From a virus, in the IMG/VR virus record IMGVR_UViG_3300044641_003190, positions 10,535 through 74,534 of that record: a stretch of DNA of 64,000 nt, one strand, 5' to 3'. Position numbers and translations under genes: made by a program. Positions 1 through 55,325 of the stretch are shown piece after piece. Under the pieces are notes generated by a model that saw only the letters and a program-made list of their open reading frames with translations, made no database searches and was not told the DNA's origin. Numbering within the stretch: position 1 is the first letter of the stretch; each line of letters starts with the position of its first letter.

Positions 1-453
1 AATAAAAAAATATTAATAGTTTTATCTGTTATTATTATTTCTTTCATTGGGTTTCCAGTGGTAAGTAAAAATAATTCAAATTGCATAAACCTATATGTTG
101 ATTATAGTGTACTGGACAATAAAACAAAACTAACCAAATGCTTAGAGGCCTCAGCCAATACAAATGCTTTAGATCTATTAAAGGGTGCTAACCTAACAAT
201 AGAAGGAACTAAGAAATATGGCGACGCAGTTGTTTGCCGAGTAAACGGATTACCAGATATATCTATTGAGTCATGTGAAGATATGCCATCAGGAAAAGCA
301 TATTGGGCAATTATAATAAAAGAAAAACAAATTTTACCTTTTCCAACTAAAGAGTGGGGCTGGGGTCAGCTTGCCATAAATCAACAATATCTAAATCCTG
401 GGGATTCAATAGGTTTAGTGTGGGCTAACAATGGAGAAGTAGTATTCCCATGA
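1..453 (+). CDS. Membrane-anchored/secreted transcobalamin-like (DUF4430-type) putative cobalamin-binding protein, 5' partial
   Basis: Frame is open from base 1 (NKKILIVLSVIIISFIGFPVVSK, a signal/TM anchor). Motifs ALDLL..A.L..EGT..YG..VVCRVNGLP, YWA, W..GQL.I...L.PGDSIG match the transcobalamin beta-domain/DUF4430 pattern. Lies next to pduO. Confidence 0.6.
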   Translation, partial: NKKILIVLSVIIISFIGFPVVSKNNSNCINLYVDYSVLDNKTKLTKCLEASANTNALDLLKGANLTIEGTKKYGDAVVCRVNGLPDISIESCEDMPSGKAYWAIIIKEKQILPFPTKEWGWGQLAINQQYLNPGDSIGLVWANNGEVVFP

Positions 454-584
454 AACTATTAGATAGACATGTGGAACAAAAGTCTACTTACAAAGTAATA
501 GTTCAACTTTCTTTAACTTTGATATGCTTATACATAGCAAACTCTAAAACAGTAGACATCTGGCGTTCTTTGACTGGACACTAA
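450..584 (+). CDS. 44-aa single-pass membrane peptide (not in ORF track)
   Basis: MKLLDRHVEQKSTYKVIVQLSLTLICLYIANSKTVDIWRSLTGH*. ATGA overlap with the upstream gene and TAATG overlap with pduO suggest translational coupling at both ends. Confidence 0.6.
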   Translation: MKLLDRHVEQKSTYKVIVQLSLTLICLYIANSKTVDIWRSLTGH

Positions 585-1153
585 TGGTTAACCTAACTCG
601 TATTTATACAAAAACAGGGGACGACGGAACCACTTCACTTGGAGATATGAGTAGAACTTCTAAAAACGATCCAAGACTCGAAGCATTTGCAACAGTTGAT
701 GAATCTAATTCATACATAGGGGTTAGTATTCTTCATGTAAAAAATGAAGAAATAAGGTTACTGCTTTTAAAAATTCAAAACGACTTGTTTGATGTGGGGG
801 CAGACCTGTGTACCCCAGTTGTAGATAATCCAGAAATTAAACCACTAAGGGTTACACAAGATCAGATAGAATATCTAGAGTATCAAATAGACAAATATAA
901 TAAACACCTAAAACCACTCAGATCATTTGTTTTGCCAAGTGGTTCTTCGTCATCCTCACATTTACATGTTGCCAGAACTATTGTTAGAAGGTCAGAAAGG
1001 TGTGCCTGGTCAGCCATATCCTCATTTGGTTCTGGGGTCAGCGTGTTAACTGCAAAGTATCTAAATCGTTTGTCTGACCTGTTGTTTGTTTTAGCTAGAT
1101 ACGAAAATATAGAATTTGGAGATAATTTGTGGGTTCCTGGAGGTCCAAAGTAG
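584..1153 (+). CDS. pduO: PduO-type ATP:cob(I)alamin adenosyltransferase
   Basis: IYTKTGDDGTT N-terminal signature, TVDE.NS.IG, LFDVGADL, FVLPSG, LHVARTIVRR.ER, YLNRLSDLLFVLAR. Confidence 0.95.
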   Translation: MVNLTRIYTKTGDDGTTSLGDMSRTSKNDPRLEAFATVDESNSYIGVSILHVKNEEIRLLLLKIQNDLFDVGADLCTPVVDNPEIKPLRVTQDQIEYLEYQIDKYNKHLKPLRSFVLPSGSSSSSHLHVARTIVRRSERCAWSAISSFGSGVSVLTAKYLNRLSDLLFVLARYENIEFGDNLWVPGGPK

Positions 1154-3357: not shown

Positions 3358-5055
3358 ATGTCTATTAAATTTAAGTTACCTGTAAATTTAGTAGCTTTAG
3401 CCCAAGACCCAGTGTCAGCTAACGCTGGGGATATATATTATAATACAGCATTAAATTCTTTTAAATACTATAATGGAACCGCATGGGGTCCAGTATCATC
3501 TTCATTAACTTCTGAAGAAATTCAAGATGCAACAGCAACACTATTAAGTCACTCTAATCATACAAATATAACAGCAACATATGACGATGCAAACAACCGT
3601 GTTGTTTTAACTGCTGAAGATGCAGTAAAAGTTCAATTTACCCCACCAACAACAGCTTCAGTCGGAGATGTTTGGTTTGATAATCAAACTGGAGAGTTTT
3701 ATGTATATGATGGATCGTTTTGGGTTCAAGTATCTGGAGTAACAGGACCTACAGGACCCACTGGACCTGCAGGTGTAGCTGGCCCTACTGGCCCCGCAGG
3801 ACCTACTGGAGCCACTGGTACAACTGGTTCACAAGGAATACAAGGTGTGCAGGGTGAGCAGGGAATACAAGGTGTTACTGGTGCCTCTGCTGGAGTAAAG
3901 TGGTCATTCATAACTGGAACTACAGATTCAGACCCATCTTCTGGTAATTTTAAATTCAATAGTGCAGTTCCACTAACCGTAACAAATATTTATGTAAGCA
4001 ATACAGATAAAATATCTGTATCCCAGTTTGACTGGATAGGAAGTTGGGATGACTCAACATCTTCAACAAGAGGACACATAGTAATATCTGGTGAATCGGA
4101 ATCTAAAAATTATGTTTTTGCAATTAATGGATCAGTAACTTCCGCTTCTGGATATTATAAGGTTCCAGTAGCATATGTTTCTGGTTCTACATCTATTCCA
4201 ACAAATAATAGCAATATGTTATTTGTTGTTACTAGAACTGGTAATCAAGGAGCTACTGGCCCTACTGGTGCACAAGGAGAAACTGGTCCACAAGGAATAC
4301 AGGGAATACAAGGAGCAACAGGAGCAACTGGCGCTACAGGACCAACTGGACCACAAGGTCCGACGGGACCACAAGGACAGGCTGGAGCATCAGTCACATT
4401 AAAGGGTAGCGTTGCTGCAGTTATTAATTTACCTTCAAGCGGAAATACAATAGGAGATTCATGGATTGTAGATGCAGACGGAAATCTTTATGTTTGGAAT
4501 GGAACTAGTTGGACAGATGCTGGACAAATAGTTGGGCCAACTGGACCAACAGGAGCAACTGGCGCAACTGGCGCTACAGGACCAGCTGGTCCACAAGGTG
4601 AACAAGGAATACAAGGAGTTCAAGGAGCTACAGGCTCTACAGGCGCCACAGGTGCTACAGGTGCCACAGGTGCTACAGGACCAGGTGTTGCAGCGGGAGG
4701 ATCTACAGGACAGTATCTTGTAAAATCAAGCAATACAGATTATGCAACAGAATGGTCTAGCATTGCAGGAGGCCTATCACCACAATCAGTATCTACAAAC
4801 ATAACACTATCGGCAAGCACAAGATATTTTGTAGATACCACAGGAGACAGAAGCCTTACTTTGCCAGCCACACCAGCACTAGGAGCTGAAATAGAAATTT
4901 TAGATGCATCTAACAATGCATCAGTTAACGATGTTATTATAAATAGAAACGGTGAAAAAATAAATGGTGTTGCTGACAATGCATCATTAGATATAAGTGG
5001 ATTTTCAGTATCATTTATATATACTGGATCTACTTATGGATGGAAGATGAAATAA
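3358..5055 (+). CDS. Collagen-like (Gly-X-Y) fibre protein
   Basis: Three GPT/GAT/GxQ tracts separated by globular knobs; C-terminal TLTLPATP..G..I...D....RNG.KI.G...GW domain. Confidence 0.8.
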
Positions 5056-6863
5056 TGGTAATAAATCTATCTAATTCACAACCACAAGGTCCAAAATCTA
5101 CAGAGACCTTTGAGAGTAAGACTATTATAGGATCACAAAATAAAATGGGATTAAAAAGTGGTAATAGTGCTAATAGAACACAGTCTCCAGTAGAGGGAGA
5201 AAACTATTTAAATACAGAAACAGGAAGCCTAGAAATATTTAAAAACTCTGCATGGACATCCCTAATTTTACTACCAGATACTGTAACAAATTTAGTAGCA
5301 ACAAATCAAGGTAGTAGTAGGCCTTACAATAATGGACAAGTATCATTGTCATTTGAACCAGGTGTAGTACTTGGAACTTCATATACTTCAACTTCTAATC
5401 CAGGGGCTATAACAACAACATCAAGCTCTACTCCTATAATAATAACTGGATTACAATCTAATACGGCATACACATTTTCAGTTGTTGCATCAAGTCCGCA
5501 AGGTGCATCCCAGCCAAGTTTGGCATCAAACTCTATTACAGTTACAACGGTTCCTCAATCTCCAACAATTGGAACAGCAACGCCAGGAGATTTATCAGCT
5601 TCTGTTTCTTTTACTCCTGGTGCTACTGGAGGGTCAGCAATAACATCTCATACCATAACAGCAAACCCTGGTAATATAACTGCCTCTGGTTCTTCATCTC
5701 CAATTACAATTTCTGGATTAACAAATGGAGTTACTTATACAATAACAGCTTCATCTACAAATGCTAATGGTACATCCTTAAGTAGCGGTTCTACAACAGT
5801 TACTCCAATAGCGCCATTTTTAATAAATAAATCTGTTCCAGATTTATTTACCGCAGCAGAGTCGTTTTCTCATCCAGATCCAGTTGTTGGAATTCCAACT
5901 GCTGGAGGAACACTATCAGTAAATAGCGTTTCACTTGGATCTTATGATTATGTTAAAAGAAATGGACCGCTCACAGTATTTAATTTTTCATCGGATGACT
6001 GGTTTACTGTTACAGAAGATAGCAGATCGGCCTTTGTCTACATTGAAGGAAATTTAACAATAAATACTGGACAAATATTCAAGCCATCAAAAAGAAAATT
6101 ATTTACATGTATTTACGTTAATGGAGACCTTACTCTTAATGGAGAAATTTCTATGACTGCTCGTGGTGCAAACCATTCTACAAGTGGGTCAAATATAAGC
6201 CCTGGAGAAATTTTAATTAAAACTGGTACATATAGTAGTGTTACAAACCCTAGAGTTCCCGCATCTGGTGGTTCAGGAGGAACTGGCGGAGTAGATCCAG
6301 ATGGTGCATGGGGTAACAGTGGTGTAGGTACCAACGGCGCCGCAGGAACAGCTGGAGGAACTGGAGGAGGAGCTGGTGGATCACATTACACTCCAGTACA
6401 GCCAACAAATTTTTCACGAGGAGGAAACGGATCTGCTGGAACTTCATTTAGCGGTGGATCTGGTGGTGGAGATGTATTTTCTGGATACTTTAGTGGAATG
6501 AATCCAGATGCACAAACAAACGGTGGTTACGGAGGAGACTCACATAACTATTATTCAAGTTTTCCTGGGCAAAATGGTGGAGCTGGAAATCCAACTGGAA
6601 GATCTTATTACGGAACGGGCAACCCAGGTGCGCTGGGAACTTCTCCAGTAACTGGTACTGGCGGAGTTTTAATTATTTTTGTTAATGGTACACTTTCAAC
6701 TGGTGGAACTGGAACTATAACTGCACAAGGTGCATCACATGGTCAAGCATCAGGTGGTGGATCAATAACGGTTATGGTAAAAACAGATATGGGTCCAACA
6801 CCAAATGCTTCTGCAATTAACAGCGGAGGCGCAGGAACAGCAAGGAAACTATTGTGGACATGA
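5055..6863 (+). CDS. FN3-repeat plus glycine-rich domain protein, putative fibre tip adhesin
   Basis: Two FN3 units (ITGL....YTF.V.A; ISGLTNG.TYTITA) and a C-terminal polyglycine domain. ATG 5055 forms a TAATG overlap. Confidence 0.7.
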   Translation: MVINLSNSQPQGPKSTETFESKTIIGSQNKMGLKSGNSANRTQSPVEGENYLNTETGSLEIFKNSAWTSLILLPDTVTNLVATNQGSSRPYNNGQVSLSFEPGVVLGTSYTSTSNPGAITTTSSSTPIIITGLQSNTAYTFSVVASSPQGASQPSLASNSITVTTVPQSPTIGTATPGDLSASVSFTPGATGGSAITSHTITANPGNITASGSSSPITISGLTNGVTYTITASSTNANGTSLSSGSTTVTPIAPFLINKSVPDLFTAAESFSHPDPVVGIPTAGGTLSVNSVSLGSYDYVKRNGPLTVFNFSSDDWFTVTEDSRSAFVYIEGNLTINTGQIFKPSKRKLFTCIYVNGDLTLNGEISMTARGANHSTSGSNISPGEILIKTGTYSSVTNPRVPASGGSGGTGGVDPDGAWGNSGVGTNGAAGTAGGTGGGAGGSHYTPVQPTNFSRGGNGSAGTSFSGGSGGGDVFSGYFSGMNPDAQTNGGYGGDSHNYYSSFPGQNGGAGNPTGRSYYGTGNPGALGTSPVTGTGGVLIIFVNGTLSTGGTGTITAQGASHGQASGGGSITVMVKTDMGPTPNASAINSGGAGTARKLLWT

Positions 6864-8891: not shown

Positions 8892-9800
8892 ATGTCACTT
8901 AATTTCACAAATCTTGAAGCAACAATCAATGCTAAGCTCAATTCGCTTACTGCAACAGTAACCGCTGCATCAGCAGCAGGTGGCACAGTAACTTATACAG
9001 CAAACAACGCATTTGCAGTAGGACAAACAGTAACAATTACTGGATTGTCTACAGCAGCATTTAATCTACAAGGCGTTGCGGTAGCAACAAAATCTCCTAC
9101 ACAGTTTACAGTAACAAATGCAGCTACTGGAACAGCGGTAACAGGAGCATCAGGAGTAGCAACAATCATTGTTGACTCAAAAGAACTTTTAATTCAAATG
9201 AAGGCCCTGGAAGCGGCCACACAAAATTTATCATTAGGAAAAGTAGTTGCTGAGGGTTTATACCAACAGGGTCTCATTCAGACAACAGCCAACTCAGCTC
9301 TATCTACATATAATGCAACAACTGCAGCAGCAACAGTACAAATCAATGCATTGATCGCACAACTCGGAGGAGTTAATACTCAAGCTATCGTAGACCTTGT
9401 AACAGCAAAATTAGCAGAAATTAACTCTGCTACAACTACAGCAATTAATAATATTAGCTCGGCAGCATCCGCTGCACAAACTACTGCCGTTAACGCAGTT
9501 TCAGCCCAACAGACAACATCTGTAAATGCTGTAACTTCAGCCCAAACAACAGCAACTACTGCCATTACTTCAGCACAATCAACAGCTGTTTCTGCAGTTG
9601 GCACTGCTGGTACAAATGCGACTAATACTGCAACAGCAGCCATAACAACTGCAAAAAATGCAGCGATAACAGAAATTAATACAGCTCTAACAGGAACGGG
9701 AGCAGCACAGATATCTGTATCTTTGAATGATCTAGATGGTCGATTAGACCTGCTAGAAGCAAACAGCCCACAGGCACTTATCTACGCCCTGACAGACTAG
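8892..9800 (+). CDS. Ala/Thr-rich coiled-coil fibre protein with an inserted beta domain
   Basis: Roughly 11-residue periodic A/T/V repeats; FAVGQTVTITG...FTV insert. Confidence 0.65.
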   Translation: MSLNFTNLEATINAKLNSLTATVTAASAAGGTVTYTANNAFAVGQTVTITGLSTAAFNLQGVAVATKSPTQFTVTNAATGTAVTGASGVATIIVDSKELLIQMKALEAATQNLSLGKVVAEGLYQQGLIQTTANSALSTYNATTAAATVQINALIAQLGGVNTQAIVDLVTAKLAEINSATTTAINNISSAASAAQTTAVNAVSAQQTTSVNAVTSAQTTATTAITSAQSTAVSAVGTAGTNATNTATAAITTAKNAAITEINTALTGTGAAQISVSLNDLDGRLDLLEANSPQALIYALTD

Positions 9801-55027: not shown

Positions 55028-55325
55028 AGAAACACACATCACCGCAAAAGCCAAAGGGTTTTGGGACGGAGAGATAAACTATGACAAGATAGGTAATAAG
55101 CTTGCATTGGTTCACTCAGAGGTTACCGAAGTGCTAGAAGCAATTCGAAAAAGCAAAGGCGGAGATGAAGTGGTTGAAGAAATGGCAGATGTAATAATTA
55201 GATTAGTAGACATTTATCAAGCAATGGTTAACTCTGGAGACATAACTAGATCACTAGACATTGCTATAGAAACAAAGATGATGAAAAACAAAGCAAGACC
55301 AGCACTTCACGGGAACCTATTTTAA
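55005..55325 (+). CDS. MazG-like NTP pyrophosphohydrolase
   Basis: LALVHSEV.E.LEA.R....EEMAD..IR..D. Confidence 0.85.
   Translation: MSLDLLARETHITAKAKGFWDGEINYDKIGNKLALVHSEVTEVLEAIRKSKGGDEVVEEMADVIIRLVDIYQAMVNSGDITRSLDIAIETKMMKNKARPALHGNLF

Follow-up and report, generated by a model that had tools for sequence, protein, structure and literature searches.

A phage gene cassette predicted to capture and adenosylate vitamin B12 for a class II ribonucleotide reductase

The phage cassette and its closest described relatives

Class II (B12-dependent) ribonucleotide reductases are common in phages, and the source of the cofactor in such phages is an open question. Vitamin B12 is a traded and often limiting micronutrient of the plankton, so that a virus in control of its uptake would matter for the ecology of the community. 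The gene cassette analyzed here lies at the start of a 64,000-nucleotide stretch of viral DNA (the window), which is bases 10535-74534 of the 74.5-kb IMG/VR virus record IMGVR_UViG_3300044641_003190 (G000, also L002; linear class, about 60% complete). It encodes a membrane-anchored protein (open reading frame 1, ORF1), a micro-peptide (ORF2) and a PduO-type adenosyltransferase (ORF3), and directly follows a gene for a predicted B12-dependent reductase. We consider it probable that the cassette is a phage-borne cobalamin supply system that captures the vitamin, adenosylates it and puts it to use in the phage reductase.

The nearest described arrangement is the nrdJ-cbrS-cbrT-pduO cluster of Lactobacillus delbrueckii (PMC5997447). 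In both, a B12-dependent reductase gene comes first and pduO last, with two genes for B12 acquisition (predicted ones, in the phage) between them, and the logic is common: vitamin uptake, adenosylation, and use in the reductase (PMC5997447). The phage set differs in being phage-borne, in having as its second middle gene one for a 44-residue, one-helix peptide and not for a six-helix S-component, and in having no energy-coupling factor (ECF) module in the record. The cassette is a phage-borne form of this known type of bacterial B12-salvage gene cluster, with an uncharacterised binder/micro-peptide pair. A study of marine virioplankton only speculates that phages with RTPR, the monomeric type of class II reductase, might enhance B12 uptake (PMC10547690), and a full-text literature search, incomplete in its coverage, turned up no description of a cassette of this kind in a phage. 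The genes described here form a concrete and widespread set that would supply the cofactor by surface capture plus adenosylation.

Two further systems resemble the ORF1 protein. The beta domains of transcobalamin, haptocorrin and intrinsic factor (2BB6, 5NO0, 4KKJ, 2PMV) and a bacterial DUF4430 protein (3U7Z) have the fold that is predicted for ORF1, and the strand motifs are alike (AYW..., ...GD.I.LVW), with sequence identity of only 10-17%. ORF1 differs from transcobalamin-type carriers in being a stand-alone beta domain with a membrane anchor and four conserved cysteines; unlike transcobalamin it has no alpha domain, and a micro-peptide partner is encoded instead. The other system is the ECF-like operon lsa1836-1840 of Lactobacillus sakei, where the genes of an ECF transporter accompany that of an extracytoplasmic, transcobalamin-beta-like protein of a Gram-positive bacterium, much as ORF1 homologues are arranged in Microbacteriaceae. 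That operon is tied to haem uptake and has an alpha-like subunit, whereas the phage has neither an alpha-like protein nor a transporter.

The genes in question are as follows (coordinates prefixed G000 or L002 are those of the whole record).

Window 1..453, plus strand, truncated at the edge of the window: ORF1, an extracytoplasmic protein on a membrane anchor, with a predicted transcobalamin beta-domain/DUF4430 fold (AlphaFold model and structural search).
G000:C1:10520-10987, plus strand: the full ORF1 gene, 155 amino acids, starting 15 nt before the window.
Window 450..584, plus strand: ORF2, a predicted single-pass membrane micro-protein of 44 amino acids that ends in His (overlap, conservation and codon pattern).
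Window 584..1153, plus strand: ORF3, a predicted PduO-type ATP:cob(I)alamin adenosyltransferase of 189 amino acids (PF01923, TIGR00636).
G000:C1:8556-10478, outside the window, same strand as the cassette: a predicted RTPR-type class II ribonucleotide reductase of 640 amino acids (family models).

Only 41 nt separate the reductase stop codon from the start of ORF1, whose ATG is preceded 7 nt upstream by a GGAG ribosome-binding site. The ORF2 ATG overlaps the TGA of ORF1 (ATGA, 450-453) and the ORF3 ATG overlaps the TAA of ORF2 (TAATG, 582-586). A first-pass annotation, made from the window alone, had called these three genes translationally coupled, and the two overlaps between three same-strand reading frames bear this out. 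A near-consensus sigma-70-like site (TAGACA, 17 nt, TATAAT) lies at L002 10465-10493, across the reductase stop codon and just ahead of the ribosome-binding site of ORF1. An internal promoter for ORF1-ORF2-pduO is one possible role; shuffled sequence yields promoter-like sites at least as often.

Adenosyltransferase, reductase and phage setting

By family membership ORF3 is a full-length, intact PduO-type adenosyltransferase. It scores 200.6 bits with PF01923 (Cob_adeno_trans; cut-off 24, E 2.6e-59) and 172.6 bits with TIGR00636 (cut-off 108.45, E 5.6e-51), and its residues 2-188 align end to end with the Mycobacterium tuberculosis adenosyltransferase (2G2D/6WGS, E 7e-63). The N-terminal nucleotide-binding motif TKTGDDGTT is intact, so that the earlier description of a full PduO with its signature motifs is upheld by family scores and motif alike. 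Such genes are rare in GenBank phage records: only 15 of 50,697 have a PduO match, mostly short unannotated fragments, and among the matches listed none comes from a Streptomyces or Puniceispirillum phage.

The gene before ORF1 is predicted to encode an adenosylcobalamin (AdoCbl)-dependent reductase of the monomeric RTPR type. The 640-residue protein has the reductase barrel and the B12-dependent insertion domain (PF21995, score 28.3, cut-off 27). Among family models RTPR fits it best (TIGR02505, E 6e-89), with NrdJ_Z far behind at 66.8 bits, and its active-site block with the partner Cys, NPCSEI...FCNL, aligns with NPCGEI...PCNL of the Lactobacillus leichmannii enzyme (1L1L). It stays below the curated TIGR02505 cut-off (299 against 340 bits; proteins of related loci score 334-360) and is 65% identical to the RTPRs of Streptomyces phages and to the annotated RTPR of Puniceispirillum phage HMO-2011. 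The first-pass annotation, made without sight of that DNA, had proposed to look upstream for an nrdJ gene, and an RTPR-type gene is what stands there.

Could the cassette be host DNA beside a prophage, or an assembly chimera? Its genes have cellular homologues, and the record is linear and incomplete. Phage genes nevertheless lie on both sides, and the record is a true phage. Upstream of the window are a nuclease, Hsp20, a CHAP endolysin, an SLT lysozyme and a glycosyltransferase besides the reductase; downstream of the cassette come fibre genes, portal, protease, capsid, tape measure, helicase, polymerase, recombinase and terminase genes. The guanine-plus-cytosine (GC) content is even across the window (0.36-0.39), a related contig (L007) has the cassette between tail-fibre genes and portal, and 60 other viral contigs carry it. 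This origin, which the first-pass annotation had named as one that would undo its reading, has next to nothing left in its favor. The actinophage marker whiB was not found in the phage record.

The ORF1/ORF2 pair in phages and cells

The N-terminus of ORF1 is basic, and 18 hydrophobic residues come next (peak Kyte-Doolittle value 3.1). ORF1 has about 200 near relatives and 156 relatives at the representative level; four cysteines are invariant, and the blocks AYW, WGWGQ and GDS.GLVW are conserved. An AlphaFold (AF2) model built from 60 sequences (pLDDT 87.9) gives ORF1 the transcobalamin beta-domain/DUF4430 fold as its clear top match. Against structure representatives, the five best VIA-align matches of the model are the beta domains of bovine and human transcobalamin, those of haptocorrin and intrinsic factor, and 3U7Z, a bacterial DUF4430 protein, at Z 10.6-11.7 and a root-mean-square deviation of 2.6-2.8 over 94-98 residues; with the sixth, a beta-grasp fold of generic type, Z drops to 6.7. 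The Foldseek ranking agrees, its top 19 being the same protein set.

Some distant homologues have the ORF1-like domain fused to an alpha/alpha-toroid (squalene-cyclase-like) domain. Five such actinobacterial fusions of 550-1030 amino acids (P0238, P0242, P0183, P0204 and P0216) were found, and in P0238 and P0242 the toroid precedes the ORF1-like domain, which is the domain order of transcobalamin. One toroid fusion, from a Nocardioidaceae metagenome-assembled genome, is annotated 'terpene cyclase/mutase family protein'. PF14478, the Pfam DUF4430 model, matches only two of 72 distant ORF1 homologues; in 301 Actinomycetes genomes the ORF1 profile matches 56 (a tally that includes the unpublished genome G034) and PF14478 three. 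One Actinomycetes genome has a true Pfam DUF4430 gene about 6 kb from an ORF1-family gene (G180:C1:3652229-3659127). Searches of solved structures with an ORF1-family profile, of GTDB genomes with the phage ORF1 as query, and of the GenBank phage records (0 of 50,697) gave no match to ORF1; the matches in GTDB genomes were obtained with the ORF1-family alignment A7 as query.

ORF2 has one hydrophobic helix, with its core at residues 16-30, and the claim of a 44-residue transmembrane peptide ending in His stands. It directly follows ORF1 in all 60 related viral loci, in a 44- or a 54-residue form, and its C-terminal tail ...DIWRSLTGH is invariant there. Other phage groups have diverged tails (IWRQFTGH, VWRFCTGC), and cellular ORF2-like peptides end in WR..G(G/A)(H/C)(Y) in 64 of 74 loci (for example WRFWGGH, WRLWGAC and WRYWGGHY); the pattern common to the diverged forms is W-R-x-x-x-G-(H/C). 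In 15 distinct 44-codon alleles the variable sites fall 20/8/36 by codon position. Over the last ten codons only silent, third-position changes occur and the encoded tail is constant, and ORF2 is therefore a translated gene under purifying selection. A word-based search gave near relatives only (39-54 amino acids); the diverged cellular forms came from gene position plus tail motif.

His and Cys are both metal ligands, and their exchange at the end of the tail suggests that the tail may ligate cobalt. The strongly basic N-termini of the 54-residue forms likewise suggest that it may face outward. Two other identities were considered for ORF2 and rejected. CbtB (PF09489) is a small His-tailed cobalt-transport protein, but ORF2 has no Pfam match to it, and an hhalign comparison of the ORF2 alignment with ten actinobacterial CbtB peptides gave a probability of 0.9%, with only the helix aligned. 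(The CbtB count, 40/151, includes the unpublished genomes G009, G026, G032 and G045; like G034, they enter the tallies only.) Nor does ORF2 have any similarity to an ECF S-component of which it might be a piece.

The pair is also found in cells. Freshwater metagenome contigs with an ORF1/ORF2-like pair have 41-45% GC. Of 24 long loci tested, 22 have an AdoCbl riboswitch immediately before the ORF1 homologue (RF01482, cut-off 50 bits, scores of 52-63). In freshwater actinobacterial chromosomes the pair is a stand-alone two-gene unit behind this riboswitch: on contig L216, which carries NadA, GcvT, Lpd and an actinobacterial-type SucB, the riboswitch-led unit consists of the ORF1 homologue and the micro-peptide alone. 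Both riboswitch-less loci have tRNA or tmRNA genes, and one of them, L178 (Ga0114981_10000009, 97 kb), carries a phage-type RTPR-PduO cassette. Its tmRNA and tRNA genes, at 8975-9434, lie about 2.5 kb downstream of RTPR-PduO-ORF1-ORF2; the contig looks viral, and the tmRNA may be phage-encoded. The phage copies differ from the cellular ones in that no AdoCbl riboswitch was found with them, either in the 12-kb upstream stretch of the present phage (even at a permissive threshold) or in nine related viral loci. The cobalamin riboswitch that the first-pass annotation proposed to look for upstream was found with cellular homologues only.

A different context is seen in Microbacteriaceae (80 loci, among them Cryobacterium, Agromyces, Aurantimicrobium, Aquiluna and Pontimonas). 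An ORF1-like lipoprotein gene is followed by an ECF T-A-A' fusion in 79 of these loci; 72 have a multi-helix, S-component-like membrane protein (the best fold matches are all ECF S-components, with weak E-values), and 66 have a convergent metH gene for B12-dependent methionine synthase. Nine of these ECF-linked loci were searched for riboswitches, and none reached the gathering score. Relatives of ORF1 and ORF2 in cells are accordingly tied to B12 in two independent ways, by AdoCbl riboswitches and by an ECF operon beside metH. In an unrooted maximum-likelihood tree of ORF1 the phage sequences group with the riboswitch-linked freshwater actinobacterial ones, and a branch with 100/100 support sets these together apart from the Microbacteriaceae ECF-linked set; without a root, it gives no direction of transfer.

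These contexts bear on the ligand. The fold alone does not fix it, and the L. sakei operon, with its split transcobalamin alpha- and beta-like proteins, is linked to haem uptake. ORF1 and ORF2 might on this precedent capture haem or another tetrapyrrole, their adjacency to PduO and RTPR being incidental. The riboswitches, specific for AdoCbl, together with the metH and PduO neighbours argue against a haem role; the phage copies accompany PduO in three gene orders, and none of these contexts showed a haem gene. We regard capture of haem or of a similar compound as quite improbable, and a corrinoid as the probable ligand.

Those three orders come from over 70 viral-type contigs. RTPR-ORF1-ORF2-PduO is the commonest (60 IMG/VR loci), followed by PduO-ORF1-ORF2 (12 loci) and RTPR-PduO-ORF1-ORF2 (four metagenome loci). 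In the 60 related loci the reductases are of the RTPR type, yet only about 27% identical to the one upstream of the window, and there are two classes of PduO, one sharing about 47% and the other about 77% identity with that of the window. ORF1 and ORF2, at 60-88% identity, are much better kept than these flanking enzymes. A cassette kept through rearrangement and replacement of its parts argues for a shared function. The combination seen in the present record, an HMO-2011/Streptomyces-phage-type RTPR with the cassette, occurs in none of the 60.

Cofactor supply and neighbouring genes

An RTPR-type reductase next to a beta-fold ORF1, ORF2 and PduO suggests that the phage most probably provides itself in this way with the cofactor that it needs to make DNA precursors. 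During infection, the phage would express its own riboswitch-free copy of a host-type capture pair. ORF1, tethered on the outer face of the membrane, would bind cobalamin or other corrinoids, and ORF2 would be its neighbour, exposing on the outside a C-terminal His, or Cys in some relatives, that probably caps or ligates the cobalt. The corrinoid would then be handed to an importer of the host, invoked because the phage record encodes none. In the cytoplasm PduO would adenosylate cob(I)alamin, and the resulting AdoCbl would load the phage RTPR, which would make deoxynucleoside triphosphates for phage replication. The enzyme steps (PduO and RTPR) rest on firm family membership, as predicted from sequence, and the capture steps (ORF1, ORF2 and importer) are proposed from fold and context. 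The scheme is in essence that of the first-pass annotation, which proposed B12 scavenging plus adenosylation feeding an AdoCbl-dependent reductase; the upstream RTPR gene, the fold of ORF1 and the intact PduO speak for it, with capture as the part that we infer.

Several points weigh against this scheme. No ECF importer was found: tblastn with the Microbacteriaceae T-A-A' fusion and S-component gave nothing in the 74.5-kb record, itself about 60% complete, or in the 60 related viral loci, and ECF genes, of which the first-pass annotation proposed to seek an S-component/CbrT-like one, were found with cellular homologues only. The description of ORF1 as transcobalamin-beta/DUF4430-like held for the modelled fold and failed for the family model, since Pfam DUF4430 (PF14478) gives no match to ORF1 at E up to 1, nor does any other NCBIfam or Pfam model; hhalign comparisons of the ORF1 profile A4 with two single actinobacterial DUF4430 proteins are weak (E 0.001-0.002, probability 13-21%), although the expected motifs line up in them. 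ORF2 has no match in Pfam or NCBIfam, and the topology proposed for it is read from its charge distribution. Binding of a corrinoid by ORF1 is likewise proposed from the modelled fold and the gene context, and the related L. sakei operon has been linked by experiment to haem, not B12 (bioRxiv 10.1101/864751). The host is probably a freshwater actinobacterium, and its B12 auxotrophy, as in the first-pass annotation, is a possibility only.

With no importer encoded by the phage, ORF1 tethered at the surface and ORF2 without an assigned role, the pair might serve something other than uptake: withholding B12 from competitors, masking or modifying a receptor against superinfecting phages, or sensing B12. 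Tight translational coupling to PduO and the adjoining B12-dependent reductase argue instead for supply, and the cellular pair is regulated like B12-acquisition genes, being shut off by AdoCbl. We think such other roles unlikely and cofactor supply the better account of the pair.

A more specific proposal is possible, which we put forward tentatively and think less likely than not. ORF1 and ORF2 may together be a two-piece minimal 'transcobalamin' of a kind not described before: the micro-peptide, with its one helix, would complete a lone anchored beta domain, and its strictly conserved terminal His, replaced by Cys in some lineages, would be the axial cobalt ligand. The device would be a riboswitch-controlled B12-capture system of very abundant freshwater actinobacteria, taken by phages, stripped of its riboswitch and wired to PduO and RTPR; the feedback control of the host would then no longer limit B12 acquisition during infection. 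Whatever its mechanism, the cassette points to an uncharacterised bacterial B12-capture pair in abundant lake actinobacteria, a transcobalamin-beta-like protein with a His/Cys-tailed micro-peptide.

Some neighbouring genes complete the picture of the locus. Two genes that begin directly behind the cassette (window 3358-5055 and 5040-6863), a good distance upstream of the portal gene, encode large proteins resembling fibres, which have glycine-rich tips and long runs of G-x-x repeats of the collagen type (GPTGPTG...). Before the reductase gene lie the following.

L002 3472-3852, minus strand: staphylococcal-nuclease-like gene.
L002 4382-4804, plus strand: Hsp20 small heat-shock protein.
L002 6089-6159, minus strand: tRNA gene (60.8 bits).

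Far downstream, a MazG-like pyrophosphohydrolase domain at window 55104-55298 (G000 65638-65832) scores 25.1 bits against a cut-off of 22, in agreement with the MazG-like gene mentioned in the first-pass annotation.

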